From Leptolyngbyaceae cyanobacterium (GTDB lineage Bacteria > Cyanobacteriota > Cyanobacteriia > Phormidesmidales > Phormidesmidaceae): 64,000 bases of DNA. The stretch's first letter is position 1, and the number at the start of each line of letters is the position of its first letter. The translations under genes were made by a program, and so were the position numbers. A model generated the notes under the pieces. The model saw only the letters and a program-made list of their open reading frames with translations. It did no database searches and was not told the origin of the DNA. This document shows, piece by piece, positions 31,992-61,022 of the stretch. The stretch spans positions 230,017 to 294,016 of the forward strand of contig CBDHHL010000048.1 of the NCBI GenBank assembly GCA_965263355.1, read 5' to 3'.

Positions 31992-32010
31992 TTCAATAAT
32001 ATTTTTTCTT

Positions 32011-37050: not shown

Positions 37051-37179
37051 GGTTCTTCTGCCAACATGATGCGTCAGCTGAACCTATAGTTACCCTGTGA
37101 TTAGGGTGTTCGATTACACCAAATACAGGGTAGCGATACTCTAAGCTTATGCTATGCTAGTCAAGCGTTAAAAACGCAT

Positions 37180-37253
37180 CGGGGCGTAGCGCAGCTTGGT
37201 AGCGCACTACTTTGGGGTAGTAGGGGTCGTGGGTTCAAATCCCGCCGCTCCGA
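37180..37253 (+). tRNA. tRNA-Pro (anticodon GGG); probable integration site
   Basis: Acceptor stem CGGGGCG/CGCTCCG, anticodon arm CTACT-TTGGGGT-AGTAG, T-loop GGTTCAAATCC; an integrase gene follows. Confidence 0.97.
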
Positions 37254-37398
37254 TTGATTGAAAACCGCTAGTTACAGCGGTTTTCGCGTTTTAAACCCCA
37301 GGCCATTCAGTGGGGATGACGTGGGTAGTAACGTGACTGAAAGTGTCATTTACACGTCAGAATATGACATCATAAGGCCGGAATTTGATAGGACAAAA

Positions 37399-38493
37399 AT
37401 GGCCAGAGCACTCAGAGGGAGCGTTCAAACTGAATTAGATCGCGGTTGGTTGCGTTTGCGATGGACGTACAAAAAACAGCGATATTATTTGTCTCTTGGC
37501 TTGCCCGATAGCGTGGTGAACCGTCGATTAGCTCAAGCAAAAGCTGATGTCATTCAGGCTGACATTAATGCAGGTCACTTCGATCCATCCCTACTCCGTT
37601 ACAAGGGCGAAGAAATTACCGCGATCACAGTCGTTGAACTATTTGAAAAATACATTGCCTGGAAACGACGACAAATATCAAAGCGCTCCCTTGATAAATA
37701 TCTAGGTTTAACACCCCGACTATCCCAGTATTTCAAAGCTCGCAAGGCTTCCGCCATTACCGAAGACCAGGCCCTAGACTTTCGAGACTGGCTTTTAACC
37801 CTAGTGGCCACGGCCACGGCCAGGGAACGACTCGGCATGATTCGCTCTTGCTGGACATGGGCCATCAATAAGAAAGTATTGACCGACAACCCTTGGGAGA
37901 ACGTCAGAATCAAGGCAGCACCACGACCACGGCCACGGCCATTCACTCAAGAAGAATACGCCCAAATACTTGACGGATTTCAAAAACTTCATCCTGACTA
38001 TGCCGATTTTGTGGCCTTTGTTATGAGCATTGGGTGTCGACTCGGTGAAGCTGCAGGCCTTCGATGGGGACACTTATCAGATGACTGCTCAAAAATTTGG
38101 ATCGGTGAAAGCTGGGGAAGAGGGGAGCGTAAACCGACCAAAACCTATAAAGATAGGGCGTTTCAGCTATCTGCAGAGTTAACAGCAATGTTACACCGGC
38201 GCAAACCTGCCAGCGCTGGCAATGATGATCTAGTATTCACGGCTGCCAATGGTGGCCCTATCGATGATCACAATTTTCGCCGTCGTTATTGGACTCCGGT
38301 ACTGGAATCAGTCGGGGTACCCTACCGAAAGCCATACAGTATGAGGCATTCATTTATTTCTCAAGCTGTTGATCAGGGATGGAGTATTAGCGAAATATCT
38401 AGCATTACCGGCAACAGTGAAGAGACTATCTTGAGAAACTATACAGGAGGGGTAAAAGGAACAACAAAATTACGGTCTGTTTGGGCTCAGTAA
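37399..38493 (+). CDS. Tyrosine recombinase/integrase with N-terminal arm-binding domain
   Basis: GWLRLRW...RYYLSLGL arm domain; catalytic GCRLGE (R), PTKT (K), YSMRH and RNY (Y); ATG 37399 preferred over TTG 37258. Confidence 0.93.
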   Translation: MARALRGSVQTELDRGWLRLRWTYKKQRYYLSLGLPDSVVNRRLAQAKADVIQADINAGHFDPSLLRYKGEEITAITVVELFEKYIAWKRRQISKRSLDKYLGLTPRLSQYFKARKASAITEDQALDFRDWLLTLVATATARERLGMIRSCWTWAINKKVLTDNPWENVRIKAAPRPRPRPFTQEEYAQILDGFQKLHPDYADFVAFVMSIGCRLGEAAGLRWGHLSDDCSKIWIGESWGRGERKPTKTYKDRAFQLSAELTAMLHRRKPASAGNDDLVFTAANGGPIDDHNFRRRYWTPVLESVGVPYRKPYSMRHSFISQAVDQGWSISEISSITGNSEETILRNYTGGVKGTTKLRSVWAQ

Positions 38494-38507
38494 ATGTAAC
38501 AGTCATC

Positions 38508-38852
38508 TTATGCACTGCGCTTTTGCTGAGTACTAGGCAACGTCTTACACCATTTTTCAATAGCTCGTTGATGGGCGCGTGGATCTTGTTTATTAACTTG
38601 CCAATCCCTGATAAGAGAAAGGTTATAGGTTACTCTACGTCCTTCACGATGGTAATGAACCCCCTCGATCCAATCCTCATGATGACGGGCAACAGTTCGA
38701 GCCGACACACCTAAGACAGCAGCTGCAGCTTTTTGATCACCCTTTTCGGGTAACTGCTGTTCTTCCAGAGCCGTCGCAATCCTCTCCTGAGCGAGAGCCT
38801 GTCTTTCTAGTGCAGTTGCCACCCTCACCAACACATCCAACAGCTTAAGCAT
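38508..38852 (-). CDS. Excisionase-like HTH protein
   Basis: AAAAVLGVSARTVARH HTH followed by WIEGVHY..EGRRVTYNL wing; convergent with the integrase. Confidence 0.65.
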   Translation of the reverse strand: MLKLLDVLVRVATALERQALAQERIATALEEQQLPEKGDQKAAAAVLGVSARTVARHHEDWIEGVHYHREGRRVTYNLSLIRDWQVNKQDPRAHQRAIEKWCKTLPSTQQKRSA

Positions 38853-39081
38853 ATGGTCCCCCCCGTGTTAGTTCCTCTGTCAACAATCGCCCTAATGAGA
38901 GCAACCTTTCATCATCAAGCATCGTCAGTAACTGGTAGGTGGTCGCCATCTGCTCATAGTCAAACCCCGTTGCCGTCAGCCAACTGCACAAACGCTGATG
39001 AAACACATCAGGATTGGCCCGCTGAAAGATTGAAGTTAAGACTATGGGCTCTGATAAGTCGAAAACAGGCAAGTTATCCAC
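38845..39081 (-). CDS. Hypothetical protein
   Basis: 78-aa ORF tightly coupled to both neighbours (2-nt gap upstream, 8-nt overlap downstream). Confidence 0.65.
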   Translation of the reverse strand: MDNLPVFDLSEPIVLTSIFQRANPDVFHQRLCSWLTATGFDYEQMATTYQLLTMLDDERLLSLGRLLTEELTRGGPYA

Positions 39082-39083
39082 AG

Positions 39084-40475
39084 CTACACCCCCTCAAATC
39101 CCTGTGGATATCCCCTCTCTCCCCCTGGAACCCCCTCTACTCCCCTGGGTAATAGATTTTTGGGGAGGTCCGTCACGGGTACACACCTCAGTAATGGGGG
39201 CAAGGTGTGTAATGCTCCATTTAGCAAAGGGTTCAGCGGATCGTGTTGCCTTTCGTTACAATCCGATTTGATGGGTGAAACCGGCTCTGGCTGAGGCATT
39301 ACACACCATTGGTCAGGATGCCAGAGATCTAAATTTTTATACAAAGTTTGGGCGCTGGTATGGGCCAACTTGCACAATTGGGCTAGCCGGTGCGATACCG
39401 TATCCGCTAACTCCCCCAACTTGGCTAGGTGCGTAACCGCCTGTTGGATCCTCCGTCTGGCATCGTCGCGGCGTTCTCCGTTGATGTCATGAGTAGTGTT
39501 GACTTTCCGATTGGGTTCGGTGCCCAGTGGCCAATAAAACTTGGTTGCCCACCGAGCCCAACTTTTTGCCTTTTTGGGTATCTCTAACTGGTGGTTGCAA
39601 TGTTCCTGATAGCCATCACGGCTATAGGCCATTTGCTCGATGTAGATGGAAAGCTCATCATCACCGAGCCCCTCAAAGACGCGGCCATAGGTGGCGATCG
39701 CACGCAATAACGAGTTAGTTTGTCCGGCCCCTGTCCATCCAGACTCCAACTCATGACGTAGGTCATTGAGCCATAACTCAACCTTGCCGGTTCGTTGTCG
39801 CCGTCGTTTACGCTGTAACTCTCTACCCTGCTCTAACGCTGGTTGCAACAACTCCATATCTTGAGCCTTGCAACAAAAATCCCACTGCCAAAAGAACCGC
39901 TCCAAACTTCCAGCCGTGGGATTTAAGTTGTGGTCCAGTAGGCAGCTGCCCGAGCCAGGCTGCAAGGGTAGCCGGTGGCCATTGTATTCCGTGATCTCCC
40001 ACGGCCTAGCATATGGCTTGATATTCGGAAAAAGTTCACACTGACCGGGCTTGATCGCGATTCCCTGAGAGTCTAGGGTATGTTTCAGTGAACAAGCCAA
40101 CGAAAACGATGACACTAAATCAGGTAACGGATAGTAAAGATGCCATCCTCCCGACCAGGATGATCGGACCAGTACGCTACGGACCAGGCCGATCATCTCC
40201 AGAGCATCCTGGATAGCTTTTAATCCATCAGGGGTGTGATAATCACTGCCCACATCGATGTCAATCATGGCGTAGTTAGTTTGGTTGCCAAACCGCACGC
40301 CGATGATGGTTGCTGCATCCTGCCACCTGGCCCATAAAGACCGAGGGCGCATTGGGTATTTATTGGTTTGCCAATCACCTCCTGACTCTGGACGTTCTAT
40401 GGTTTGCCATTTGTAACTAAAGGTTGAGGTGAGCCGTCTGCCCTGAGCGTTTTCTGGATGTGGGTCGATAAGCAT
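39084..40475 (-). CDS. Putative primase-polymerase (AEP superfamily) replication protein
   Basis: hhhDhD motif (YAMIDID), SxxGxH motif (SSWSGGWHLY), ELFP and RLP blocks; PriCT-like helical region (GQTNSLL); C-terminal HTH-like TSAQTLYK. Confidence 0.7.
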   Translation of the reverse strand: MLIDPHPENAQGRRLTSTFSYKWQTIERPESGGDWQTNKYPMRPRSLWARWQDAATIIGVRFGNQTNYAMIDIDVGSDYHTPDGLKAIQDALEMIGLVRSVLVRSSWSGGWHLYYPLPDLVSSFSLACSLKHTLDSQGIAIKPGQCELFPNIKPYARPWEITEYNGHRLPLQPGSGSCLLDHNLNPTAGSLERFFWQWDFCCKAQDMELLQPALEQGRELQRKRRRQRTGKVELWLNDLRHELESGWTGAGQTNSLLRAIATYGRVFEGLGDDELSIYIEQMAYSRDGYQEHCNHQLEIPKKAKSWARWATKFYWPLGTEPNRKVNTTHDINGERRDDARRRIQQAVTHLAKLGELADTVSHRLAQLCKLAHTSAQTLYKNLDLWHPDQWCVMPQPEPVSPIKSDCNERQHDPLNPLLNGALHTLPPLLRCVPVTDLPKNLLPRGVEGVPGGERGYPQGFEGV

Positions 40476-43308: not shown

Positions 43309-43701
43309 ATGACTGAAATTCAAGTTGAAAATTGTCAGGAAAATTTATCACTTTATCTAGAGCATGATAGTGGTTATACGCCTGAATTTCTGAAAGACCA
43401 TCAAGAGGTTGATGAGGAACTTAGCCGTATTGTTTTGGTTTTCAATGGGGGTGATAATTTTGAGGGGATAGCGGGTGTTGAGGCGTACAGTATATCTGTA
43501 GAGACTGACTATCCTTGGAATTTATCACCGGGGCAACAGAAGGCTTACGAGTTGTTGTTGCCTTTGCAAACTGGCTCTGTTTACGCGCTAACAACTATTG
43601 GTAAACTGGCTGAGGCTATGGATCTAAAGTGTATTAGGGCAGCCTGTAAGCGCTTGGAAAATCTTCAAAGTTTAGGTGTGATTAAAGGTCTTAAGCTTTA
43701 A
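43309..43701 (+). CDS. Hypothetical protein with C-terminal LexA-like winged HTH
   Basis: LSPGQQKAYELL...TIGKLAEAMDLKCIRAACKRLENLQSLGVIK parallels the LexA DNA-binding-domain pattern. Confidence 0.55.
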   Translation: MTEIQVENCQENLSLYLEHDSGYTPEFLKDHQEVDEELSRIVLVFNGGDNFEGIAGVEAYSISVETDYPWNLSPGQQKAYELLLPLQTGSVYALTTIGKLAEAMDLKCIRAACKRLENLQSLGVIKGLKL

Positions 43702-43787: not shown

Positions 43788-43904
43788 AGGTTTGGGCTCA
43801 AAACTGCGAAGACTGTTTTACAGCTACAGGCATGCGCTAACAAATTAAACACTGCAACGTACTCTTCTCTCGAAAAAGGTTAAAAGAGCAAGAAGGGTAA
43901 AGGG

Positions 43905-44727
43905 CTACGGAAGAGAGCCTGGGGGCGCACTCACAACTCGAAAACCGATAATGAGGTAGCGGTCGCCGGGCAGATTGTAGTTGCGACGGGCGGAGCGGCA
44001 ATCCTCTGGATAGTCTGGCCCAGGAGCCGCCGCGCAGGATGCGTCTAGAGTCATTACCATCAGTCATCCAAGCACTGCCATCTGTGGGTGCATTGTTGTA
44101 ATTCTCATGCCAGATATCTTGACACCATTCCAAAACATTTCCATGCATGTCACATAGCCCAAAATCATTGGCAATATCAAAATAATCGACATGGGTGGTT
44201 TCTTTTATATAGTCACCTTCAGGACCATCACCATAGGCAACCGTTCCACGATAATTGGCCACATAAGTCGTCAGGGTTTTGCCAAAATGAAAGGGGGTTG
44301 TTGTTCTAGCTCGACAGGCATATTCCCACTCCGCTTCGCTGGGTAATCGATAGGGACGGCCTGTATGGACTGATAGCCGTTTACAGAACTCCACAGCGTC
44401 ATACCAGGTTACTTGCTCCACAGGTCGATCAGCGCCTTTGTATTCAGAGGGGTCTGTCTCTAACTCGCGATCTACCGCTGGCATCGCCGCCACGGCTCGC
44501 CATTGAGCCTGGGTAACCGGATAGCGTCCCATAAAAAACTGAGGCACCGTCACGTCATGCAGGGGGCCTTCAGACTTCTGTCGTTTCAGCTCATCCTCTG
44601 GGGAGCCCATGGTAAATGTGCCGCCAGGAATTAACAGCATCTGCAGTGGGATGGCATCCCCCAGGGCCTCTAAGGGCTCGGTATAGTACTGAGTCGTAGC
44701 GGTCGTCCGCCGAAGAGTAAACGCCAT
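43905..44727 (-). CDS. DGR target 1: stand-alone FGE-sulfatase/C-type-lectin-fold protein (+1 frameshift inside its VR as sequenced)
   Basis: IPGGTFTMGSP, YPVTQAQW, RLPSEAEWEYACRA, DMHGNV.EWC and RGGSW motifs. Removing one base at ~44016 restores ...[14 protein letters not shown] with the stop at 43905. Confidence 0.9.
43919..44033 (-). repeat. DGR variable repeat VR1
   Basis: 115 nt against the 114-nt TR: 10-11 substitutions at TR adenines (depending on gap placement), two T>C changes and one insertion. Confidence 0.93.
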
Positions 44728-44850
44728 AGAGCAGCAGGTAACTTATTAGCCCCCAGTCTAGCCGCTCCCAGTCCCTAGTTCCCAGTCTCCGGCTGGGAAC
44801 CCCAACCAGGCTCCGCCTGCATCAGTAGGTTAATCTCTCAATTCTAAATA

Positions 44851-45033
44851 GGGCCAGCTAAGTCGTCGGTTTCCCTACCAAAGTAGCTGGCCCAGGGTTA
44901 TTTTTGGATACCTCGACGGGTATCGCCGGAATAGGCTCTGGACTCTTCTGAGGCACACCCGACAGATTCCCATCTGCCAGTTCTGACCAGCCAGGTACCC
45001 AGCCATAGGCAAGGCACCAGCAATAGAAGAGTG
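44851..45033 (-). ncRNA. Structured 3' spacer of the DGR template RNA
   Basis: Directly 3' of TR on the minus strand; stems CAGAT/ATCTG, GATACC/GGTATC and a 10-bp GGGCCAGCTA/TAGCTGGCCC (44851-44860 with 44884-44893). Confidence 0.6.
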
Positions 45034-45147
45034 CTGGGGGCGCACTCACAACTCGAAAACCGATATTGTTGTTGCGGTTGCCGGGCTGATTGTTGTTGCG
45101 ACAGGCGGAGCGGCAATTCTCTGGATTGTTGATCCAGGAGCCGCCGC
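45034..45147 (-). repeat. DGR template repeat (TR)
   Basis: Reads [37 protein letters not shown] with ten AAY codons; not part of a CLec gene; lies next to avd. Confidence 0.96.
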
Positions 45148-45257
45148 TTCGCGGCCTACCCCACATCTAGCATACACAAAACACGAGCCCACCCAACAAG
45201 GCCATCCTGCCGTTAGCTGGGCATTCTGAGCTAACTGGTTACATCTACCCCACATCC

Positions 45258-45647
45258 ATGGCTGTTGAGCTGCCCATCCTGCAAAAAACCTATGACTTAA
45301 TTAAGTGGTACGTCCCTTTACTCAACAAACTACCCCGTGATCAACGGTTTCTATTGGGAAACCGCATCATCACCGGCCTCTACGAACTACTAGAAGGCCT
45401 GATCGTAGCCCGCTATCAGCGCGATAAACTCCCCCAACTACGACAACTCAACAGCAAGCTAGAAATCCTACGCTATCAAACCCGACTGCTGTTAGATTTT
45501 GACCTACTTTCCCACCGCCGCTACCAATACGTCAGCCAACTCATCAATGCCATTGGTACAGACCTTGGTGGCTGGATACGCCAGCAAGAGCAGAAACCAA
45601 AGGTCAGAAATCAGCCCCCAGAAACCACAGCCATTACTAACCGCTGA
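45258..45647 (+). CDS. avd: DGR accessory variability determinant (four-helix bundle)
   Basis: [11 protein letters not shown]...[13 protein letters not shown]...[10 protein letters not shown]; basic 129-aa protein ending 2 nt before the RT. Confidence 0.92.
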
Positions 45648-45649
45648 CT

Positions 45650-46711
45650 ATGCAACGCCATGGGAACCTTTGGCCCCAGGTCATCGACTTTGAGAACCTA
45701 TTGCTGGCCTCACGGCTTGCCCAGAAAGGCAAACGCTTTCGGCCCAATGTCCTCGCCTTTAATGACCGGCTAGGGGCAGAGCTTTTACAGCTCCAGACCG
45801 AACTCACCCACTTTACCTATCGCCCCGGCAACTACCGCACCTTTAGAATCCGCGATCCAAAACCACGCATGATTTCGGCAGCACCCTATCGAGATCGGGT
45901 GGTTCACCATGCCCTATGCAATGTGATCGTGCCATTGCTAGACCGCACGTTAATTAACCACACCTATGCCAATCGTCTGGGCTATGGCACCCATCGGGCA
46001 CTCACCCAGTTTACTGACTGGGCACGGTGTTATCCCTACTGCCTGCAATGCGATATCCAAACCTACTTTCCATCAATCGATCATGAAATCCTCAAGTCCA
46101 TCATCCGGCAACGGCTCAAGTGCCCAGACACCCTATGGCTCATTGACACCATCATCGATGCCAGTAACGACCAGTTCCCCGTTCTCGAATACTTTCCAGG
46201 GGATAACCTGCTCACGCCCGTAGAGCGACGACGAGGGCTGCCCATCGGCAACCTCACCAGCCAGTTCTTTGCCAATTTGTACCTCAGCCCCTTCGACCAC
46301 TTCGTTAAACGCCAGCTCAAGCTCAAACACTACCTGCGCTATGTGGACGACTTTGCCGCCTTCTCAGATGACCAGCAGGAACTGGCCGATGCTCGATTGG
46401 CCATGGAAGATTATCTGGCTACCCTGCGGCTAAAAATGCACCCCATAAAAAGCCAGCTATTTGAACCTCGATATGGGGCCAACTTTGTCGGTTTTCGCAT
46501 TCTGCCTGATCGCATCCGTGTCCGTAATGATAATGTGCGCCGAGCCCGGCGACGGCTCAAGTACTTGCAACGTCGTTATGCCGCTGGAGCAATTGAGCTA
46601 GAGCCGCTGGTCCAGCGCCTGCAGAGCTGGGAAGCCCACCTGAAGCATGGCAATACCTATCGCCTGCGGCAAAAGGTATTTGAACGCCATACGTTTATTA
46701 GACACGAATAA
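45650..46711 (+). CDS. DGR reverse transcriptase
   Basis: [33 protein letters not shown]-type [10 protein letters not shown] and catalytic YVDD; 353 aa with no maturase or endonuclease extension. Confidence 0.96.
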
Positions 46712-46741
46712 GAGGAATGAATTTAGAGGGTAAGAGGGTAA

Positions 46742-46768
46742 TGGTTCCAGGCAGAGCCTGGGAACCAG
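46742..46768. repeat. REP-like hairpin downstream of VR2
   Basis: TGGTTCCAGGCAGAGCCTGGGAACCA; a related hairpin GTTCCCAGTCTCCGGCTGGGAAC lies at 44778-44800. Confidence 0.7.
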
Positions 46769-46781
46769 AAAGGGTAAAGGG

Positions 46782-47633
46782 TTACACAAGAGAGCCTGGG
46801 GGCGCACTCACAACTCGAAAACCGATATAGTTGTCGCGGTGGCCGGGCGGATGGTTGAAGCGACAGGCGGAGCGGCAAAACTCAGGAAAGTTGATCCAGG
46901 AGCCGCCGCGCAGGATGCGGATATTCGTCATTACCGTCAGTCATCCAGGCACTTCCATCTGTAGGCGCATTTCTTATAAGTTGTCATGCGAAATATCCTG
47001 GCACCATTCCCATACATTGCCATGCATGTCGCATAGGCCAAAGGCATTAGCTACATCAAAGTGATCAACTACAGTAGTTTCTTCTCGATATTCGCCTTTG
47101 GGGCCAGAACCATAGGAACCTGACCAGTTGTATTCTTCGCTGTCAGTGCCTCGGTAATTTGCTAAATCCGTCGTAATCGTTTCGCCAAAATGAAAGGGTG
47201 TTTTTGTACCTGCCCGACAAGCATATTCCCACTCGGCTTCGGTAGGGAGCCGGTAAGGACGGCCTGTATGGGCTGAGAGCCTTGCACAGAACTCCACAGC
47301 ATCGTCCCAAGATACCTTCTCCACAGGCCGATTAGCCCCCTTGAAACTGGATGGATCAACATCTAATTCCCGTTCCACCGGGGACATCTCCGCCACAGCT
47401 CGCCACTGGGCCTGAGTCACCAGATACCGCGCCATAAAGAACTGAGACACCCTCACCTCGTGCTGAGGGCCTTCGTTAGACTCACGCTTTAACTCATTCT
47501 CTGGAGACCCCATTAAAAACGTCCCTGCCGGGATACTCATCATCTCCAGGGGGCTCACCCCTGAGGCAATAGACTCTTCGTAATACTGGTTTTGCCCCTG
47601 ACTTTTGTTGATGGTGACAGCTTGAGCCTGCAT
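46782..47633 (-). pseudogene. DGR target 2: stand-alone FGE-sulfatase/CLec protein, interrupted as sequenced by three single-base duplications
   Basis: The ORF stops at WCQDISHDNL*. Removing an extra T, A and C in 46920-46980 restores HDNYKNAPTDGSAWMTDGNDEYRILRGGSW...[14 protein letters not shown]. May be intact in vivo. Confidence 0.8.
46796..46909 (-). repeat. DGR variable repeat VR2
   Basis: 114 nt; 12 substitutions against TR, all at adenines, with no indel. Confidence 0.95.
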
Positions 47634-47669
47634 AGTTGCAAAGGGTAAGAGGGTAAGAAGGGTAAAGGG

Positions 47670-50379
47670 CTACGGAAGAGAGCCTGGGGGCGCACTCACA
47701 ACTCGAAAACCGATATAGTTGAAGCGGTAGCCGGGCCGATCGTAGTATGCGACAGGCGGAGCGGCAAAACTCTGGAAGGCTGATCCAGGAGCCGCCGCGT
47801 AGGACACGTCTAGAGTTATTACCATCAACCATCCAGGCACTGCCATCCGTGGGCGCACCCCTGTAATTGTCATGCCAAATATCCTGACACCATTCCCAAA
47901 CATTGCCATGCATATCTGATAAACCAAAGGCATTGGCAATCTTGAATTCCGTTACTGAAGTCGTTTGCTCGCGATATTTTCCCTTAGGACCATTGCCGTA
48001 GGTATAGCCGCCATTGTAATTAGCAACTTCAGTCGTTAGGGTTTCGCCAACGTGAAACGGCGTTTTTGTCCCTGCCCGACAGGCATATTCCCACTCCGCT
48101 TCGCTGGGCAAACGATACAGACGTCCAGTGTCATTCGATAACCGTTTGCAAAACTCCACAGCATCTTCCCAAGAAACATTCTCCACAGGCCGATCAGCCC
48201 CTTTAAAGCCGGATGGCTCAGCCTTTAGCTCACAGTCCACCTGGGGCATCGCCGCCACCACTCGCCACTGAGCCTGAGTCACCGGATAGCGCCCCATCAA
48301 AAAGCCAGCAACCGTCACTTCATGCTGTGGCCCTTCACTGTCGATTCGGCTAAGCTCATCCTCTGGAGACCCCATCAAAAAGCGACCACTGGGAATCGCC
48401 ACCATCTCCAGCGAGATATCTGCCCCCAACTCTTCCAGAAATCGATAAGCCTGACCACGGGTCTTGGTCACCACCCAGCGCTGCCGCCGTAAAAAGCCTG
48501 TACGTTTACGCTCTAACGTCGCCACCTGACACTCAAACAGCTCCAGACCATCCCCAGGCAAACTCACCGTCGCAATCTCAAAGGTAGCCGTCTTTAACGA
48601 TGGATACTCAACCGTCGGCTCAGCCTCTGAGTCTACAAGCGTCCCTTTGGTAAACTCCAGTACCTCCAACGGTGGATAGTCAACCTTATTATCTGGAGCT
48701 AAAGACTGCACAACGGTTTCCGTCTCCACAGCTGCCACCAACTCTGCATACTGCCCCCCCAACCGCCGCAGGGCCTGCTTCGTCACATTGGCAAATTCCA
48801 AAAACTCACTGCCTGCGGTCTTCAGCTCCTCCTTCAGCCGCAGCAGCGCCATAAAGCTATAGATCGACTTACCCAGCTTGCTGCCAATATAGGCTGACAC
48901 TTCGTTCAGCACCTCCTCTGCCGAGTCTGTCCTGACCGTATCCACCAGCAGTTCCCGCACACCCTCCACAAACCGATAATGCCGTTGCTGATCAAACAAA
49001 CTCCCCTGAGAAACTCCCTTGGATCTATCGACTTCCCCAGCCTCAGGCTTTACCCGCTCAATCAGCCCACTTAAAAACACCTCCGCCACATGCAACGGCG
49101 ACGACTCTGGCAACAGCTTGGCCTGAATGATATACACCAGTGACAGCTCCACCGGCACCAACGCCATTAACGACGCCAACTCTCGGGCCGTTTGCGATGC
49201 CGTTTGACTAAATTGATTTACCAGCTGCTCAGCATAGTCTGGCTCAGTCTGGGTAGCCACGGGGCCAGCAGCCACCAGCTCTGGATCATCTACCTCATCC
49301 TCCAGTTCATCCAACGGATACCAAATGCCCGCCGTTTGGGTATCACCAAACCCAGCCAACACCCTAGCCCACTGAGCCATGGACGACGGTTCTAACGTAA
49401 TGATCGGCAGCTTTAGCCCTGGGCCATACTCCCGATGAAACTCCTGAGGTAGTGGGTCCACTAGCTGGGCATTGGTCCCCCCTGGCCCCCGTGCCGAGAA
49501 TGTGGTTTGTAACCCAGCCTCTAGGGCTGTACGGGACCACATGCGCGACGGCAGCATCTGCAAAATCGCCACGGGGCCATGTTTTGCCCATGGGTCCAGA
49601 TAGTAAGTCTGCAATTTTCCCCGCTGCCATGCGGTCGAAATGCAATCGCTAACCACCACGATCAACCGTCGCCCAGATGCATCGATCAGCCCCTTTGGAT
49701 CGCGGGGGCGAGGCATGGCTTCTGGCATCGGACGCTTAGCATACAGCGCTGTGGCACCACCGGCAGAGGTTTGCAAATACCACACCGTCACGGTACGAAA
49801 CGCTCCCTGCCGTTCTAACACCTGCTGAAAGTCACGAATCGTATCGCGCCACAAAAAGCTAGAGGCAGAATCTTCGACCACCAGGGCCAGTTCTAACCAT
49901 CGTTCTCGGGCAGGCTGCACCATGGTCATACAAAACTGACGCTCAGCCGTCTGTTCCGCCGTCGCCTCTTCATCCAACTCCGTTTGGGTGTAGGAGTCCA
50001 CTCGCCGCATCAAGGGCCGTAGTGAACGCCCCAAGGCCAACGTTCTGCGTAGGGCCGGAGACGTTGGTGTGGCAAACGGGATGCCCTTGTTAGGGGCTTT
50101 AGTTTTCTGAGTCTGAGTCTGTTGGGTTGTTTGACTGTAGAGAGAAAACTCAGCAGCTGAAGGCGGCGGCGCTGGCGGCGTATTATCGATCTCAATTTCG
50201 ACAGTCTCGTCAGGCTCTGACCTTGAGTCTGGTTCCTGCCTTTCCCCTGCTTCCGGAGCGTCAATGTAGCTCGTCAACCACAATAAGTCAGCAATATTCT
50301 CCCCATCCCAATCGATACCCGCATTTTTCACACGGGCAATCACTGTCGCCAAATTAGAAGAGAAATCCTGCTGTACCAA
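47670..50379 (-). CDS. DGR target 3: vWA-like (SAV_2336-type) N-terminal domain plus C-terminal FGE-sulfatase/CLec domain (+1 frameshift in its VR as sequenced)
   Basis: LGRSLRPL, LDEEATAE, LELALVVEDSAS (degenerate MIDAS) and IVVVSDCIS..W; full CLec motifs. Removing one base at ~47748 restores [14 protein letters not shown] at 47670. Confidence 0.9.
47684..47798 (-). repeat. DGR variable repeat VR3
   Basis: 115 nt; 12 substitutions, all at TR adenines, plus one insertion (AAC to ATAC). Confidence 0.95.
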
Positions 50380-50383
50380 TGGC

Positions 50384-51388
50384 CTAAGCCCCCGGCCCTG
50401 ACAATGGCTTCAGAATTTTTTGCAGCAGGTCACTATCAGCGGATAGATCCGGTGTCCCCTCTTGAAGTAATAAATAAATGGCATTGAGCAGTTGATCTGT
50501 CGCCAACGACTCACGATCTCGCTTCTCCACAAAGGCTTTGATCACCGGCTCCGCCTTCGTCAGCACGTCACCGTCTAATTTCGCCAAATGCCGTTGCACA
50601 ATATCCGCCAGTTCAGCCTCTGTCGGCTCACCCATATCCAACCGAATACAGCGCCGCAAAAACGGTGGTGGAAAATCCCGCTCACCATTGCTGGTTAAAA
50701 TCACAAACGGAAACGCATTACACTGCACCTGCCCCTTTTCAATGGTGGCCGTTTCATCCTCTTCAGCATAGGAGGTCCCCACATCCACTGTAGGTAGTAC
50801 TTCCTTAATGCGCTCCAGCTCATCAATCCGAAAGCGCCCTTCCTCAAAGGTATGGAGCAAATCATTGGGCAAATCAATATCGCTCTTGTCAATTTCATCA
50901 ATCAGCAACACCCGAGGTTTTTGGCTCCCTTTAGGCACCGGCAACAGTGCCGTACCCAACGGCCCCAAACGAATATATTTACCAATGGCCTTTAGCGCAT
51001 CGGCCCGATCTTTGGGTAGCTTATTAGTCTGGTCAAACTGAGAGTCTTGCAAGCGACCAATGGCATCGTAACTGTATAGGCCCTGCTTTAGGGTAGTACG
51101 TGTCGTAATTGGCCAGTAAAGCACTTCCCCCAGCTTTAGCTCATGGGCCACCGCATAGGCCAGCGACGTTTTACCCGTCCCCGGCTTCCCCGTAATCAAC
51201 AATGGCCGCCGTAGATAGAGCGCCGCATTAACCAGCTCTATCTGAGCCTCATGGGCCTTAAACGTGGTCCCCTTTTGCTCCTGATACTGATTTACATCCT
51301 GAAACGCTCGCCACCCTGGTGGAGGCGGCAAACGCTCTAGATCATCGTGGGGCTCTCCAGTCCCCTGATAGATTTTCCAAGAAGTCAT
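50384..51388 (-). CDS. MoxR-family AAA+ ATPase
   Basis: LPPPPGWR, AALYLRRPLL, Walker A GKPGTGKT, Walker B LLIDEIDK, TSNGER and FLRRC. Confidence 0.93.
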   Translation of the reverse strand: MTSWKIYQGTGEPHDDLERLPPPPGWRAFQDVNQYQEQKGTTFKAHEAQIELVNAALYLRRPLLITGKPGTGKTSLAYAVAHELKLGEVLYWPITTRTTLKQGLYSYDAIGRLQDSQFDQTNKLPKDRADALKAIGKYIRLGPLGTALLPVPKGSQKPRVLLIDEIDKSDIDLPNDLLHTFEEGRFRIDELERIKEVLPTVDVGTSYAEEDETATIEKGQVQCNAFPFVILTSNGERDFPPPFLRRCIRLDMGEPTEAELADIVQRHLAKLDGDVLTKAEPVIKAFVEKRDRESLATDQLLNAIYLLLQEGTPDLSADSDLLQKILKPLSGPGA

Positions 51389-53205
51389 AGTCTGGCAGCA
51401 GATAACTTAACATTTGGCGGCACTCGATTGGGATCATCCCACAAGATTGCTAAATGATGACCCAACTTTGGCGATTGAGCATATTCTGTCTCGGATTCTA
51501 AAGGAGGTGTATTACGCCGTATTTCTAACACTTTCTCAGGCACATCTTTTAGCGGATGAGAAAGTACCTGATTAAGCAGCTTTGGACTCCAGTCCTCTTC
51601 AGACTGGTTATTCCTCACCCAAACAGCTACAGGAATACCTTGCTTCGCCAGTAGTTGAGGATCGCTCTGGGAATTTAATGAACTTAACTTTTGAAACCCC
51701 ACAATCCCAGCATCTTTAAGGTTATCACTATCGGCAAACACCTTATGGGCGGACACCGTCGCTTTAGCGGACTTTAATTTCCATGTCTTTTTCCATCGAG
51801 CATTGGCCTTGAAACCACCCAGGTTAGAACGCTTTTGCAATGCCAAAATCACCCGCTGACAATCGTCACTGCCAATGCCTAATGGTTCATCTTCTAGCAT
51901 TAATCGCTCCCAAGGTTCATTGAGTAGTGAAGTTGGCAACACAAAGTACACAGTTAATTCACCCGGATCACACTCATCGTCTAACCCTCCACATAGTTGC
52001 ATTAGATAGCTTTCCAGCAAAATCGGTAAGTCACCATAAGCAACCTGATGCTCTGAAAGATGACCATAATTGTCATCTTCCGGAGAAAACAGGAGCCGAC
52101 GACTACCCTGCAAGGTCTGAGTGCTATATTTTTCAGGATCTAAAACAGCCCATGCTTCAACCGATAGGCTTTCTCGACTCGCATCCTCTTGAATATTGAC
52201 CAACAGCATCGGATCACGGGGTTCAACCTGTTGCTCTTGCCGCTTTGCTTTTTGTGCCTGCATCGCCGCTTTGGCAGATTCCAAGTCCTTCGCATATCGA
52301 CTGCCCCATTGATACAACCGCTCTCTTGGCTCTGCTAGTTGCTCTATCTGTTGGGCCTCTAGCTCTAGCACCAGGGCCGCTACAAATTGGACTAACTTAT
52401 CTTCTTCCTGATCAGCACCCGCCGTTGCATTCGCTAGCTCATCGATAATCTTGTGGGTTTCTCGCTGAACCGGAGTCACAGCATTTTGAGACCGACACAG
52501 ACCATAAGCCCGCTGAATAAAATTTAGAATATTTACCTCAGCAGCATCCAAGATATCCGTAAGAGTCTTACGCCGCAAGTAGTTCAGAGGCTCACGGAGT
52601 ACATCCTTAGGCATCATGTAAGCCAAGGTTACAGACTGCTGCTTATCCTTTTCAGCTGCAACTGTCATCCCCACGACAGCATTTAACTGTTCATCCCAGA
52701 TAGGTGAACCACTAAAACCCTGTTCCAGTGAACGATCTTGGCCCATTTTTGCATCTAACTGAACCCATCGTTTCCCAGTTTCACCCCGCAAGGTAGCCGT
52801 TGCCCAAACTCCGTCAGTATGACCTTTAGGAAAACCAAACACTCTTAGGGGATGTCCCCAAGCATCTGACGATGAAACTATTCCAACAGGCTCAGCATTA
52901 GCAGGTGCCGATGCCAATAACTTGAGCACAGCCATATCTTCTGAAAAGGCTGTCTTTGAAACTGGCAACCAGAAAACAACGGATGCCTCTACTTTTTGTC
53001 CTGGTGCTAGCAACGGCAAATCAAGCTGTACCGACTGATCAGGTATGGCCTCTGTATTCTCAGACAACGACAAAGCTGCCGCCACCACATGGGCACAAGT
53101 GAGCACATAACTCTCAGCTACCAAAAAGCCAGCACCGACGACATTGCCATTAGCGTGATACAACCTAACAACGGAAGACTTTAGCGGTTCTAAACGATCG
53201 GACAT
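51385..53205 (-). CDS. Trypsin-like protease fused to a vWA-MoxR-associated (VMAP-type) C-terminal domain
   Basis: Intact triad TCAHV / EDMAVL / GFSGSP; C-terminal FVLPTSLLNEPWE, GIPVAVWVR and LAILWDDPNRVPP; its stop overlaps the MoxR start (ATGA). Confidence 0.85.
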   Translation of the reverse strand: MSDRLEPLKSSVVRLYHANGNVVGAGFLVAESYVLTCAHVVAAALSLSENTEAIPDQSVQLDLPLLAPGQKVEASVVFWLPVSKTAFSEDMAVLKLLASAPANAEPVGIVSSSDAWGHPLRVFGFPKGHTDGVWATATLRGETGKRWVQLDAKMGQDRSLEQGFSGSPIWDEQLNAVVGMTVAAEKDKQQSVTLAYMMPKDVLREPLNYLRRKTLTDILDAAEVNILNFIQRAYGLCRSQNAVTPVQRETHKIIDELANATAGADQEEDKLVQFVAALVLELEAQQIEQLAEPRERLYQWGSRYAKDLESAKAAMQAQKAKRQEQQVEPRDPMLLVNIQEDASRESLSVEAWAVLDPEKYSTQTLQGSRRLLFSPEDDNYGHLSEHQVAYGDLPILLESYLMQLCGGLDDECDPGELTVYFVLPTSLLNEPWERLMLEDEPLGIGSDDCQRVILALQKRSNLGGFKANARWKKTWKLKSAKATVSAHKVFADSDNLKDAGIVGFQKLSSLNSQSDPQLLAKQGIPVAVWVRNNQSEEDWSPKLLNQVLSHPLKDVPEKVLEIRRNTPPLESETEYAQSPKLGHHLAILWDDPNRVPPNVKLSAARL

Positions 53206-53213
53206 CAGTCAGC

Positions 53214-53549
53214 CTACGACTGCCCTCCCCACTTAAGCGTCACCTCAAAAGTGACCTCACTACCCACGGAGCTAAATACTACACCCGCTTCTGCGCTTAA
53301 CTTCAAGCCAAAGGTAACCTCGACTTCATCAGCAGGCGTCGTTAAACCATCCTTCAACTTTGAAACCACCGTTGACGCAACAGGCTTAATCGCATCCAGG
53401 GCCTCATTTAAGTTTTTCTTGGCCTTATAGACCATTTCGGTCGTTTCGGTCAATGCTACGCGCTCAATAGCATTGGAGTTAGGCTCATCAATCTCAACGA
53501 GAAAAGGGGTCCCGTCTTCTAACGTGAACTGAGCTAAAGCTTTATCCAT
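53214..53549 (-). CDS. Trypsin co-occurring (Trypco1 / CU044_2847-like) protein
   Basis: FTLEDGTPFLVE, DEVEVTFGLKLSAEAGVV and FEVTLKW motifs; GAGGAG RBS; directly upstream of the trypsin gene. Confidence 0.82.
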   Translation of the reverse strand: MDKALAQFTLEDGTPFLVEIDEPNSNAIERVALTETTEMVYKAKKNLNEALDAIKPVASTVVSKLKDGLTTPADEVEVTFGLKLSAEAGVVFSSVGSEVTFEVTLKWGGQS

Positions 53550-53864: not shown

Positions 53865-54203
53865 TCACTCACCAAAGTTTTTGTCAATCTCAAATCCTTT
53901 AGATTGAGCCAAAAACACCTGATTAATTCCCCTCACAGTAGCGATGTCTTTTTCTACTGAGTCAAGGCGTCTCTCTAACTCTTTAAGCAGAATATTAGTG
54001 TGGTTACTCAGTGATTTATAATCTCGCTTGAGATGATTAATATCACGCTCTAACCCATAGCTATGACGAACCCTAGCAACAAAGAAGCCAATCACACCGG
54101 CTGCCGTTGAAAAAACTGTTATCGCTAACGGTAGATTCTCTATCAAAAATTTGTTCATGATGACTAAACGTAAAGGGCGATCCAAGATCGCCCTTTTTTC
54201 CAT
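53865..54203 (-). CDS. Single-TM plus coiled-coil protein (holin-like architecture)
   Basis: TM segment LPLAITVFSTAAGVIGFFVA followed by heptad repeats. Confidence 0.6.
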   Translation of the reverse strand: MEKRAILDRPLRLVIMNKFLIENLPLAITVFSTAAGVIGFFVARVRHSYGLERDINHLKRDYKSLSNHTNILLKELERRLDSVEKDIATVRGINQVFLAQSKGFEIDKNFGE

Positions 54204-54222
54204 GGGAGTTTCAAGGAATCAA

Positions 54223-54597
54223 CTATGCCGCGTGTTCTTCAGATTTGCTGGGGTGGACAAACCCGATTGAACAAATGTTGGCAGTCCCCTTGTTGTCTAT
54301 CTCAGACTTACAGGCTGGATAAACAACCGCCATCGGCGGAATACCCGATACATCATCTGTGAGCTTCCATCCTTCATGGGGTTGACAGCTCTCGACTTTG
54401 CAAGCTTCCGAATAAATGACGTTCCCACTGCTAACCTCTAGAATGCCCCATTTTCTATCTCCAACTGGCCTATCTTGCGAATGAATCAAAACATACTGGT
54501 CATAGGGCAGCTTTTCAAGCCACTGGCTAAAGTCAAGCTTTAATAGGTGACCCGGTTTTGGAATCGTGACCACGCCATTAACAATAGGTCTAATCAT
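54223..54597 (-). CDS. Hypothetical protein
   Basis: GGAGG RBS; part of a co-oriented gene string. Confidence 0.7.
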   Translation of the reverse strand: MIRPIVNGVVTIPKPGHLLKLDFSQWLEKLPYDQYVLIHSQDRPVGDRKWGILEVSSGNVIYSEACKVESCQPHEGWKLTDDVSGIPPMAVVYPACKSEIDNKGTANICSIGFVHPSKSEEHAA

Positions 54598-54611
54598 CGG
54601 CTATGGCCTCC

Positions 54612-55319
54612 TTACAGGGTATCAGGTACGTCTTCACCGTCACCACCACTGTCACCGGCTGGAGGTTCTGCAGGAGGCTGATCGCCAGATTCAGCATTAA
54701 CCTGATCTAAGGATGTTGGCAACACACAGTTAATCTGCAACCGTTGCTGAAAGGCCATATAGCCTGCCTGAACCGCATTATAGATATCGGTAACCGCTTC
54801 ACAGCGAATGGCATCCGCATCAAGGCCCAGGGAGTCCAGATCAATAGTCTCAAGCTGACCTTGCAAGGCAGCAATTTGTTGCCCTTGGGTCGCTTGAGTA
54901 GTCTGAATATTAGTCTGGTTAGTCTGCAAATTGGTGATCAGATCACCATGCTGATTAATTTGTTGTTGCTGGCTGTTATAGCTGCTTTCCAGCGCATCAA
55001 GGCGATCTTTAACCTGTTGCAGGTCATTAACGCCGTCGCCATCCTGGTCTTGCAGCGATTCAATCAGTTGTTGTAACTGTTGAACCTGAGCCGTAAACCC
55101 ATCCTGGTTAACCAGCGTATCTAGAACCGTTTGCATCGCTGCAAATTGTTCTAAGACGAATACGCGATCCGCCACCCGACCATCACAGATGGCCGTCTGT
55201 AAGGCTTCACCCATTTGGTCAAAGAATTGAGCAATATATGCCGGGTTCACACAGTCACCGTCTGGTGTGGTGTATCCTGTAAACCCTTGTGTGCCTTCAC
55301 CGTTCTGAACAGTAACCAT
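54612..55319 (-). CDS. Acidic Gln-rich coiled-coil (fibre-like) protein
   Basis: Long heptad region with a DQDGDGVND Ca-binding-like loop. Confidence 0.7.
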   Translation of the reverse strand: MVTVQNGEGTQGFTGYTTPDGDCVNPAYIAQFFDQMGEALQTAICDGRVADRVFVLEQFAAMQTVLDTLVNQDGFTAQVQQLQQLIESLQDQDGDGVNDLQQVKDRLDALESSYNSQQQQINQHGDLITNLQTNQTNIQTTQATQGQQIAALQGQLETIDLDSLGLDADAIRCEAVTDIYNAVQAGYMAFQQRLQINCVLPTSLDQVNAESGDQPPAEPPAGDSGGDGEDVPDTL

Positions 55320-55331
55320 AGGTCAAATTAG

Positions 55332-55925
55332 CTAAGTTTTCTTAAGAAACAAAAGTGAGCCATAGATCTCAGGCTCTACATTGGTGCGATAACCGAAACC
55401 CCACGATTTTGAGCGGTCTCGGTCACACCGCATCTCAGCCACAAACTGAGTCGGCTCAGTAACCGCCAGTAGTCCGCCCATGGGGATGTGCCAGCTGTAA
55501 TGCTCGGAATAAGTGCTGGCCCCATAAATCGGGGTGAGCGAGCCGCCCAGGGGTCTCAGACGGCATCGCATCCCCGAGTTTTCCATTCCCGTTAGCCAGC
55601 CGTTCACGACATAACGGCCCGATGGCAGTTCAATCCGGCCAGCGCTGGGGAATGGCGTAATGGAACCAAATTCATTTAACGGATCGGCATAATTAAACGG
55701 TCGTTCAATCCAGGTATTGGGTGGGTGAAAACTTCCCCCACTCTGGCCAGATGGCCGACGGATTTGAAAACTCGCCCAACTCACCGCCGCTAACGAATTA
55801 GCCCCATTGATGGACTCATGGGGAAACGCTCGATAGGAGGTGCCCCCACGAGCAACAAAGAATTGATCGCTTGCCTGAAACGGCATAGGTAACAACGGCA
55901 AGTCTGAGAAGTCAGTCCCACTCAT
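55332..55925 (-). CDS. Putative receptor-binding/spike protein (beta-sandwich, C1q/TNF-like)
   Basis: N-terminal FSDLP...DQFFVARGGTSYR resembles fibre attachment motifs; SGGSF...W..R..N, IELPSGRY and GFG....EIYGSL resemble phage fibre-tip domains (recognised from memory). Confidence 0.55.
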   Translation of the reverse strand: MSGTDFSDLPLLPMPFQASDQFFVARGGTSYRAFPHESINGANSLAAVSWASFQIRRPSGQSGGSFHPPNTWIERPFNYADPLNEFGSITPFPSAGRIELPSGRYVVNGWLTGMENSGMRCRLRPLGGSLTPIYGASTYSEHYSWHIPMGGLLAVTEPTQFVAEMRCDRDRSKSWGFGYRTNVEPEIYGSLLFLKKT

Positions 55926-56428
55926 GGAAAAACGATCAAGTCTCCGAAAAATGTAAACTCTTCTGTTGGTAAAGAATCCCCAACTCCAAACAAAATCAAC
56001 CCCGTCTCTTGTTCGTTTGCGTCTGAGAACACGTCTGGTAATTGTTTAGCCCATATCTCGATTTGATAATCCGTTAGCCAGGTATGGGGCCAAAACTCAA
56101 AGTAGTAGCTAAACCCATCACCCGTAAACGAAAAATACTGATTATCTAGATAGACCCGTTCTACTTGCTTGCGTGGTGATGCAATCGGCGTACCACGCAA
56201 GCTTTGAACAAAATATCCCGCCCGCTTCCAGCCACGGTCAGCCCCTATGCGTGAACTAATTTTCACCAGCACACTGGCTGATAAAGACAGCTCAAACGTG
56301 AACAACTTCCCCCTAGCTGCATTGGTGTAGTAAGTCGTTAATCGCTCAAACGTATCTGATAACAACGTTGAGGTAAATACACCGAAGTAAGACGATGGAT
56401 ACAAGACCGGACCATAACGGCCAGACAT
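55922..56428 (-). CDS. Hypothetical beta-rich protein
   Basis: Coupled to both neighbours (ATGA and TAATG overlaps); WKRAGY...YYFEFWPHTW...IEIW. Confidence 0.7.
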   Translation of the reverse strand: MSGRYGPVLYPSSYFGVFTSTLLSDTFERLTTYYTNAARGKLFTFELSLSASVLVKISSRIGADRGWKRAGYFVQSLRGTPIASPRKQVERVYLDNQYFSFTGDGFSYYFEFWPHTWLTDYQIEIWAKQLPDVFSDANEQETGLILFGVGDSLPTEEFTFFGDLIVFP

Positions 56429-56763
56429 TAGTTATAGGAACGATTGAGAACACGGTACACGTATTCCACTTTGCCGAGTCCCGTAACATTTTTACCGACA
56501 ATAGACTTTAAAGCATTATCCACTTTGCCAGCAGCACAATAAACATAGCCTCTAGCCTTGCGCCTCTTGGTATCCCGCTTAGACCCCCGTAGCCCTAGCT
56601 TGATAACCGCTCGTTTTGCAGCTTCCCCAGTCAGAATATTATTTTTACTGGTTGTTGTTTTTGCACCAACAATAGACCCTAGGGTCTTGTAAATATCTGG
56701 CTTAAGTGACAATGCAGCTGCCGAATTGTTGAAATCGAAATAATACGTTTTAAGTTCTGCCAT
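56428..56763 (-). CDS. Small basic protein
   Basis: K/R-rich (RGSKRDTKRRKAR), 111 aa. Confidence 0.7.
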   Translation of the reverse strand: MAELKTYYFDFNNSAAALSLKPDIYKTLGSIVGAKTTTSKNNILTGEAAKRAVIKLGLRGSKRDTKRRKARGYVYCAAGKVDNALKSIVGKNVTGLGKVEYVYRVLNRSYN

Positions 56764-56797
56764 CGTTCATCATCTCAATAAAATTGTTCAAACTGAC

Positions 56798-57031
56798 TTA
56801 AGACAGATACTCATCAGCTGTATACGTGATAGCCCCTGCTGCTCCCGATAGTGTGGTGGGCAGCGTCAGGGCAACGGCCACCGTACTCGCTTCGGTGTCT
56901 GGAGTAATCGTGATGTTATTCAACGGAATTTCATCAGTCGATTGAGTCGCCTCAGCTGCCTGAATCGCTAAGGCAATTTCTAGGGCCTGACCTTCTAGGG
57001 TCGTTGCTGTGGTTGTAATTGCAGCCGCCAT
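56798..57031 (-). CDS. Small Ala/Thr-rich protein (candidate virion subunit)
   Basis: Strong AAGGAG RBS; helix (TLEGQALEIALAIQAAE) followed by beta-strands. Confidence 0.7.
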   Translation of the reverse strand: MAAAITTTATTLEGQALEIALAIQAAEATQSTDEIPLNNITITPDTEASTVAVALTLPTTLSGAAGAITYTADEYLS

Positions 57032-57162
57032 AAGTCTCCTTGATAAGTAATCGTTGATTCAAAAAAATTGGCTGCTTTATCAATGCCCCAAATGGTTATC
57101 AGACTGGGCATTCTGGCAATACGTTTGTCCCTTCCACCCTAGGGTAGAAGGGTATATGAAAC

Positions 57163-60839: not shown

Positions 60840-60880
60840 AGCGTATAACTAAATAGTAGTAACAAATAAGGAAGCAAGTT

Positions 60881-60979: not shown

Positions 60980-61022
60980 AAAGTAGGGGGCATTTGTTGC
61001 TTCCCCTACTGAATCTGCTTAT

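Follow-up and report, generated by a model that had tools for sequence, protein, structure and literature searches.

The stretch between positions 43905 and 50379 of the analysed window (64,000 nt of contig CBDHHL010000048.1 from a Leptolyngbyaceae cyanobacterium) raises the question of whether one template rewrites the tips of three lectin-fold genes, and what these genes may serve. A first-pass annotation read it as a complete diversity-generating retroelement (DGR) recently active on all three targets. As a whole, the locus is, with good likelihood, best explained as a three-target DGR rewriting lectin tips, one of them encoded in a predicted anti-invader operon.

Retroelement, targets and adenine-specific changes

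The components are as follows.

43905-44727, minus strand: Target 1 (T1), stand-alone FGE/C-type-lectin-fold gene (Pfam FGE-sulfatase, 4e-50)
43919-44033, minus strand: variable repeat VR1, 115 nt; 10-11 changes at TR adenines, two T>C changes, one extra base near 44014-44016
45034-45147, minus strand: template repeat (TR), 114 nt, 28 A, ten in-frame AAY codons
45258-45647, plus strand: avd accessory gene, 129 aa (Pfam bAvd PF22296 and NCBIfam DivGenRetAVD NF033474, above cut-off)
45650-46711, plus strand: DGR reverse transcriptase (RT), 353 aa, open frame; RVT_1, YVDD at residue 231
46782-47633, minus strand: Target 2 (T2), stand-alone FGE/C-type-lectin-fold gene (Pfam FGE, 5e-44)
46796-46909, minus strand: VR2, 114 nt; 12 of 12 mismatches at TR adenines, gap-free
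47670-50379, minus strand: Target 3 (T3), vWA-type N-terminal domain fused to an FGE/C-type-lectin fold (FGE, 1e-53)
47684-47798, minus strand: VR3, 115 nt; 12 of 12 mismatches at TR adenines, extra base at 47746-47748

The DGR is real: the RT, Avd, the TR with its ten AAY codons and the three VRs claimed at first are all present. Avd scored 135 bits against the NF033474 cut-off of 80, and its gene lies on the strand opposite to the TR and targets. In a quick tree built without labelled Doré clade 5E or Wu Lineage 4 references, the RT nested among cyanobacterial DGR RTs and grouped with those of Leptothoe and Leptolyngbya, whose loci carry Avd and TR-VR pairs. The viral-contig scan with the RT gave only RTs of 37-47% identity. 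The four repeats were the only matches to the TR within the 64-kb window, and the TR 3' flank differs from the 3' tail common to all three VRs. A hairpin downstream of the VR was significant after VR2 only (z -3.5) and not after VR1 or VR3; sigma-70 and terminator scans gave no excess over shuffles (5 vs 8.4 and 12 vs 10.1, respectively).

DGR mutagenic retrohoming proceeds via a TR transcript and cDNA. In VR2, all 12 substitutions fell on TR adenines, as first read. The same count was obtained for VR3 provided that one extra base was allowed in the TR alignment, and the counts first given for VR1 were also recovered, likewise with one extra base. The hypergeometric chance of such specificity is 5.5e-9 for 12/12 (VR2 and VR3 each) and 9e-6 for 10/12 (VR1). 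In the pooled VRs, 34 of 36 substitutions lie at TR adenines. The reported excess of A>T (22/36 substitutions) and of Tyr/Phe (12/27 changed residues) was borne out; the A>T bias is nothing special, since this is the commonest change in related loci too (1137 of 2413 A changes). Because the template differs from the three gene tips almost only at adenines, the DGR likely rewrites these tips, and the reading of one template serving three targets stands.

Public contigs added evidence on activity. Compared with the window, the X2 contig, from a related strain, showed 15 differences over 413 nt, which indicates recent diversification: every one fell in 112 nt of VR2 sequence and on a TR adenine (p 1.1e-11 and 1.5e-9), the remaining 300 nt being identical. 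Over VR1, the X1 contig carried one substitution at a TR adenine; this evidence is a single contig at a depth of 4.6, and a single-contig difference under depth 5 may be an error. X1 gave no cover at 46830-46964 at 92% likeness, and runs X3 and X5 yielded short or distant pieces only. Adenine-specific variation between individuals was thus seen at 15/15 sites in VR2 and at one site in VR1, no listed contig spanning VR3; the claim of recent activity on all three targets holds for VR2 and extends weakly to VR1.

An origin of the four repeats as ordinary paralogues, drifting or gene-converting without mutagenic retrohoming, would agree with the paralogy of the three FGE genes (71-89% identity upstream of the VRs) and with the two non-adenine changes in VR1. 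It is refuted by the adenine statistics and sits poorly with the confinement of the X2 differences to the VR and with the adjacent RT and avd genes, so that its probability is close to nil.

Frame shifts in the assembled targets

The epithet "complete" fits the machinery and fails for the targets, none of which, as assembled, has an open frame through its VR. All three carry Pfam FGE and a C-terminal VR that is out of frame: T1 shifts inside VR1 (ORF 43837-44727, 296 aa), T3 inside VR3 (ORF 47494-50379, 961 aa), and T2, owing to three extra bases shortly ahead of VR2, stops at 46974, before that repeat. These frame shifts were passed over at first, as were the operon containing T3 and the probable integrated element around it. 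The orthologues in related locus L001 are unbroken (T1, 273 aa; T3, 911 aa).

Five extra bases account for the shifts: one in VR1, one in VR3 and three upstream of VR2. Four of the five are absent from public contigs that span the VR1 and T2 sites (none listed spans VR3), the VR1 base being missing from X1 (the single contig of depth 4.6) and all three T2 bases from X2. This makes assembly error likelier than decay, and the targets are probably whole in living cells. X2 comes from another strain, as its avd/RT contigs differ at 6/398, 2/439 and 6/355 letters, and therefore gives no proof of whole targets in the strain of the window. The three T2 bases are doubled letters within 60 nt of a paralogous repeat, as fits unpolished errors; both in-VR bases coincide with TR adenines, positions at which two alleles of a mixed population could end up next to each other.

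The alternative is that the frame shifts are real, with RT slippage having broken VR1 and VR3 and ordinary mutation T2, in a decaying DGR of an ageing island. In its favour, no target is intact, whereas the host genes at 1.4-37 kb appear whole by eye (homologues for the host indel comparison cover just 5966 of 37178 host bases), and further island genes appear broken at about 60650 and 62350. Real +1 VR alleles may exist: +1 gaps occur in 4/170 related TR-VR pairs, one of the four, L025, having its gap at the same place as VR1, and occasional frameshifting indels are also described by Wu et al. 2018 (PMC5758913). The rarity of such gaps in relatives, set against 2/3 here (p 0.002-0.003), speaks for assembly error instead. 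Sister loci L001, L002 and L109 have RTs 90-91% identical to the present one; L001 and L002, the two closest named relatives, share the three targets and the operon at about 81% DNA identity, in genomic contexts other than that of the window, and have in common a deletion of about 720 bp that took out the TR, avd and the RT start. Decay is nevertheless regarded as rather unlikely in view of the missing extra bases in the public contigs, the doubled letters in T2 and the open frames of the RT, avd, TR, MoxR, VMAP and Trypco1. The five extra bases are probably errors, and the case counsels caution: in an assembly, DGR targets can look like pseudogenes through breaks that probably stem from mistakes at variable or repeated positions.

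One further oddity of the island was considered. Reading 57610-58029 and 57365-57853 as one gene split by assembly error was rejected, only the N-terminus matching homologues of 272-278 aa; a search for a longer homologue of the two frames found none. Another contig also carries the 139-aa product of 57610-58029, which counts against a split gene and, on the side of decay, means that this oddity is not private to the assembly.

The operon and the probable tRNA-Pro-integrated element around it

Upstream of T3, three genes continue on the same strand.

50384-51388, minus strand: MoxR-like AAA+ ATPase, 334 aa (AAA_5; Walker A and B motifs present)
51385-53205, minus strand: VMAP with N-terminal trypsin-like protease, 606 aa (Trypsin_2, VMAP-M1 and VMAP-C above cut-off)
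53214-53549, minus strand: Trypco1 adaptor, 111 aa (PF19493, 1e-24)

The N-terminus of T3 matches the SAV_2336 N-terminal domain NF041121 at 415 bits against a cut-off of 200, which we take to be the mark of the vWA gene in VMAP ternary systems. MoxR, the vWA-type T3 and VMAP are adjacent and co-oriented, and the His/Asp/Ser motifs of the protease are present. Avd, RT, the vWA-type domain, VMAP-M1/C, trypsin and Trypco1 all score above curated cut-offs. T3 is thus the vWA-FGE gene of a Trypco1, trypsin-VMAP, MoxR and vWA ternary conflict operon. The trypsin-type VMAP comes with Trypco1, as the rule of Kaur et al. 2020 (PMC7159879) expects.

The DGR and this operon form a 9.9-kb cassette, which is flanked by the following features.

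37179-37254: tRNA-Pro(ggg), left end of the element
37258-38493, plus strand: tyrosine integrase, adjoining the tRNA-Pro
38508-38852, minus strand: excisionase-like gene
39084-40475, minus strand: primase-polymerase-like gene (match below the Pfam cut-off)
53865-61337, minus strand: block of mostly unknown genes, shared with integrated elements of related cyanobacteria (homologues in L001, L081, L083 and L090)

The left-end site and genes of the element (37179-40475) recur in two named genomes, and the cassette lies between the replication genes and the 53865-61337 block. The right attachment site was not found up to base 64000 by exact words, blastn-short or a 22-nt pattern with 3 mismatches. 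The counterpart in strain PCC 7375 occupies the same tRNA; its two att sites are separated by about 14.7 kb, and it contains homologues of genes from either side of the cassette. The equivalent slot of Leptothoe spongobia, preceded by the same small gene, is occupied by a type III CRISPR-Cas system (Cmr genes, RT-Cas1 and Cas2). Copies of the cassette with about 81% DNA identity lie in two other contexts. Related cassettes adjoin integrases, relaxases and primases, which fits conflict cargo better than housekeeping. The whole cassette is thus probably cargo of a tRNA-Pro-integrated element.

A bolder reading, possible though on the doubtful side, takes the surrounding element to be an unclassified virus-like one that integrates in Leptothoe-type cyanobacteria and has a hotspot for interchangeable defence genes; the cassette would be such cargo, with type III CRISPR-Cas taking its place in a relative. 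Against PHROGs, 13 window ORFs of the 53865-61337 block gave weak coiled-coil matches only, and one L001 homologue of the block matched a tail-fibre family (2e-15). No relative of the 725-aa or the primase-like protein turned up in scans of viral contigs. If this reading is true, a cyanobacterial cellular-type DGR would sit on a provirus, and the antigen-sensor idea would be backed directly by genomic context and could be put to the test with a portable unit of 10 kb.

A capsid candidate was followed separately. A 180-aa L001 protein lay near CRESS/STNV coat proteins in the Atlas (0.84-0.87, a lead only); its model (pLDDT 96) was mixed alpha/beta with a best Z of 3.9, no fold match was found in PDB, BFVD or a wide search, and a search of the window found no member of its family. 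The lead was dropped because of the missing structural match and the absence of the family from the window.

Predicted role of the diversified tips and known systems

The operon is predicted to act against invaders. The Avd-RT pair likely makes adenine-directed errors as it copies a single template RNA, and likely writes the copies into the C-terminal binding tips of the three FGE/C-type-lectin-fold genes, one of which is the vWA gene of the trypsin-VMAP/MoxR/vWA operon. By analogy with the model of Doré et al. 2024 (PMC10907252), as set out in the portion of that paper used here, a variant lectin tip would bind a foreign ligand, the vWA-MoxR pair would relay the binding, and the VMAP protease would be switched on, so that the cell is killed or arrested; T1 and T2 may be extra sensors. 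Such a chain appears slightly favoured.

Also compatible with an active DGR is a proposal that follows the Vallota-Eastman et al. 2020 (PMC7517822) reading: the diversified proteins would adjust signalling inside the cell, or its differentiation, and would not be sensors of invaders. The targets match no PADLOC family, and defence is only a prediction in the literature too, the sensor model being still a proposal in the text of Doré et al. Three points weigh against a signalling role and make it fairly improbable: the operon belongs to the VMAP ternary systems and encodes a protease, the slot is taken by CRISPR-Cas in a relative, and related cassettes have integrases, relaxases and primases as neighbours. 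For invader sensing by the lectin tips, the slot shared with CRISPR-Cas adds independent context. Among filamentous cyanobacteria, such an element is nothing unusual; the cassette is compact, self-contained and recently diversified.

The architecture has already been published, the DGR-VMAP pairing by Kaur et al. and Doré et al. and the three targets by Wu et al., and the swappable-cargo context is the sole fresh point. The following comparisons refer to the portions of these sources considered here. According to Kaur et al., about 80% of the VMAP systems of cyanobacteria and gammaproteobacteria are DGR-associated; their ternary systems share Trypco1, trypsin-VMAP, MoxR, the vWA-FGE/FGS fusion and a nearby TR, and are basically the same as the present one, except that here two more stand-alone FGE targets use the TR as well and avd-RT is encoded on the other strand. 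Clade 5E DGRs, described as putative antigen sensors by Doré et al., who state that the sensor model awaits testing, are alike in the cyanobacterial RT, MoxR, peptidase, adaptor and vWA-containing target, and both studies show natural VR diversification between populations; their mobility evidence consists of IS elements and MITEs, whereas here the cassette probably lies in a tRNA-integrated element.

Lineage 4 of Wu et al. is similar in having several targets per TR (a three-target example is figured there) and extra non-adenine changes; at least three VRs were present in 8 of 43 long related loci in our set. That lineage is described as the least phage-associated group, whereas the present copy probably lies in an integrated, possibly viral element. 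The cyanobacterial DGRs of Vallota-Eastman et al., reported as exchanged horizontally within the phylum, resemble it in C-terminal CLec targets, varied N-termini and several targets per DGR; in the part of that work considered, no DGR was definitively assigned to a prophage and two were on plasmids. Treponema denticola TvpA (PDB 2y3c) shares the FGE-type C-type lectin fold and the C-terminal VR, and the whole L001 orthologue of T1 aligns with it through the VR (E 9e-25); TvpA is an outer-membrane lipoprotein, whereas the present targets belong to an ATPase-protease operon.

Organization and proposed mechanism of the DGR

Four copies of one repeat were found in the window (about 43.9, 45.0, 46.8, and 47.7 kb). 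Their alignment, together with open avd and RT frames that passed the family cut-offs in a profile search, confirmed the DGR parts named in the first-pass annotation (RT, Avd, TR, and three VRs). The features are arranged as follows.

From 53549, minus strand: genes for Trypco1, trypsin-VMAP, MoxR, vWA-FGE (target T3), and FGE (target T2), in this order
After T2, other strand: RT and avd
45034-45147, minus strand: TR, with 28 adenines and ten in-frame AAY codons
After the TR: FGE gene (target T1)

All 12 mismatches of VR2 with the TR are at TR adenines, as first counted (alignment; chance 5.5e-9). The counts claimed for VR3 (12 of 12 at adenines; chance 5.5e-9) and VR1 (10-11 adenine changes and two T>C; chance 9e-6) held only after one extra base was allowed in each. 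The described spectrum was also reproduced, with A>T in 22 of 36 substitutions and Tyr/Phe in 12 of 27 changed residues; it is generic among related TR-VR pairs. The computed upper bound of the TR coding capacity is about 6e14 peptide variants per target. One non-adenine T>C in VR1 (window:43989, TR position 45; Cys to Arg) probably did not arise at random but was inherited or selected, since it recurs in three of the five compared VRs of the sister loci L001 and L002. A 102-codon ORF enclosing the TR in the VR reading frame (window:44858-45166, minus strand) is probably a side effect of a template without stop codons. Two similar strong hairpins were detected after VR2 (46740-46770, z -3.5) and before T1 (44775-44800, z -2.8); the latter is missing in L001 and L002, so the pair may be a small mobile repeat and not a DGR signal.

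The operon matches the DGR-linked VMAP ternary system in the available text of Kaur 2020 (PMC7159879) and Doré 2024 (PMC10907252). The locus is a genuine three-target DGR within a VMAP ternary operon; it has diversified recently and is of a kind already known. According to the accessible parts of PMC10907252 and PMC5758913, reverse transcription of TR RNA introduces errors opposite adenines, and the resulting cDNA replaces a VR. As in TvpA, the VR falls in the C-terminal portion of the FGE-type lectin fold. A tip matching a foreign ligand would bind it, the signal might then be relayed by vWA and MoxR, and the VMAP protease would act. The available text of Kaur 2020 (PMC7159879) gives the opposite roles, with VMAP as sensor and FGE as effector; both assignments are predictions.

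Recent diversification and target reading frames

Public contigs were compared with the locus in two comparisons (4/5 and 2/5 listed runs), which left VR3 uncovered. The contig of run X2, from a related but different strain, differs from the window by 15 letters, each within the 112 nt of VR2 covered and each at a TR adenine (p 1.1e-11), with no substitutions in the other 300 nt. In VR1, the contig of run X1 differs at one TR adenine. These differences document diversification after the strains split, a past event and not activity today. The recent activity proposed for all three targets is backed for VR2 and, by a single adenine, weakly for VR1.

The DGR had been called complete, which applies to the machinery but not to the targets, all three being out of frame as assembled: T1 and T3 lose the frame within their own VR, and T2 has a stop codon ahead of its VR. 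These breaks are probably assembly errors, judging from sequence comparison. The X1 contig (420 nt) is without the VR1 extra base, the X2 contig (413 nt) is without all three T2 extra bases, each a doubled letter, both in-VR extra bases are at TR adenines, and the L001 orthologues of the targets are whole. Among 170 TR-VR pairs from 160 RT-related loci (some in both collections, so that pairs are not all independent), 12 were gapped, eight by multiples of three and four by +1; +1 in two of the three window VRs is unlikely at this rate (p 0.002-0.003). Against assembly error, coverage of the X1 contig is low (depth 4.6), the X2 contig comes from another strain, the VR3 extra base is outside public contig cover, the related locus L025 carries +1 at the same position as in VR1, and the available part of Wu 2018 (PMC5758913) reports indels that shift the frame in DGRs of this type. 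The accessible text of PMC12875486 mentions 3-nt slippage in AAC repeats, and that of bioRxiv 2024.11.15.621889 mentions no indels.

Related loci and loss of machinery

Within the available flanks of 80 genome loci with related RT, genes for Avd (76), FGE (69), MoxR (36), vWA-type domain (25), VMAP (14), and Trypco1 (9) were found. At least three VRs were present in 8 of 43 loci (at least 15 kb, with TR). A quick RT tree (99% SH-aLRT) placed the window RT as sister to L001 and L002, followed by Leptolyngbya sp. PCC 7375 and Leptothoe spongobia. The opposite-strand layout with the TR upstream of avd is common to nine close loci (L003-L009, L012, and L013); the sister pair L016/L017 has all parts on one strand.

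In the sister loci L001 (9838-10016), L002 (1576-1732), and L109 (1-330), a common deletion of about 720 bp removes the TR, avd, and RT start, while L001 and L002 each keep three targets. A search of two sister genome bins, which may be incomplete, gave no better match to the window TR than their own VRs. Comparison of five of the six L001 and L002 VRs with the window TR put 59 of the 66 mismatches at adenines. The cassette DNA is about 81% identical to both copies, of which that in L001 adjoins homologues of the unknown gene block and that in L002 adjoins tRNA-Cys and a lysozyme gene. These loci seem to be a frozen DGR that spread after the loss of its machinery.

Probable integrated element and proposed cargo slot

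The window is cyanobacterial: the host genes that border the island share 65-98% identity with their PCC 7375 counterparts. Upstream of the cassette are tRNA-Pro(ggg), an integrase, excisionase-like and primase-polymerase-like genes, and two HTH genes; downstream is an unknown gene block. In PCC 7375, an element at the same tRNA carries both att sites, separated by about 14.7 kb, along with homologues of genes from both cassette flanks; it has no DGR gene. L. spongobia shares the left arm, and RAMP, Cmr3, Cmr2, RT-Cas1, and Cas2 directly follow its homologue of 43309-43701; these type III CRISPR-Cas genes (L085:6478-15824) occupy the slot of the DGR cassette and would lie within its element. 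Only this cargo-slot context is new about the locus. Genes of this element type were near 6 of 170 RT loci searched (5 of 49 loci of at least 15 kb); L064 has a tRNA, integrase, TIR, VMAP, and excisionase, and L073 a TrwC relaxase. A provirus is unproven because no attR was found in the window and no capsid was identified; a literature search of incomplete coverage returned no report of a cyanobacterial DGR in a provirus. Beyond attR of the PCC 7375 element, L081:5102-10437 contains a second integrase and SMODS, Cap17-like/CHAT, and QueC genes, an arrangement that resembles CBASS-type defence. Defence islands seem to accumulate at the tRNA-Pro site.

The conserved block (window:53865-61337) recurs in L001:1809-8672, L081, L083, L087, and L090, integrated elements of Leptothoe-type cyanobacteria. 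It encodes a 700-900-aa Gly/Pro-rich protein, a 272-292-aa protein, and several small proteins, and is possibly an unclassified small virus. A 180-aa protein family at L001:4595-5137, undetected in the window, has 169 members at 50% clustering and a confident fold (pLDDT 96) with no match among solved or predicted viral structures. In window:60207-60839, a 725-aa gene apparently extends upstream past a break in the frame at about 60650, within a G-rich run. A small ORF and then a gene with NB-ARC and repeats, which is interrupted near 62350 in a run of C, occupy window:61644-64000; a homologue flanks the DGR in L012 and is also present on the same contig in the L001 genome (L088). The window also contains two copies of a 32-nt palindromic repeat (5531-5565 and 32008-32040) and three copies of a 26-nt tandem repeat (3011-3088).
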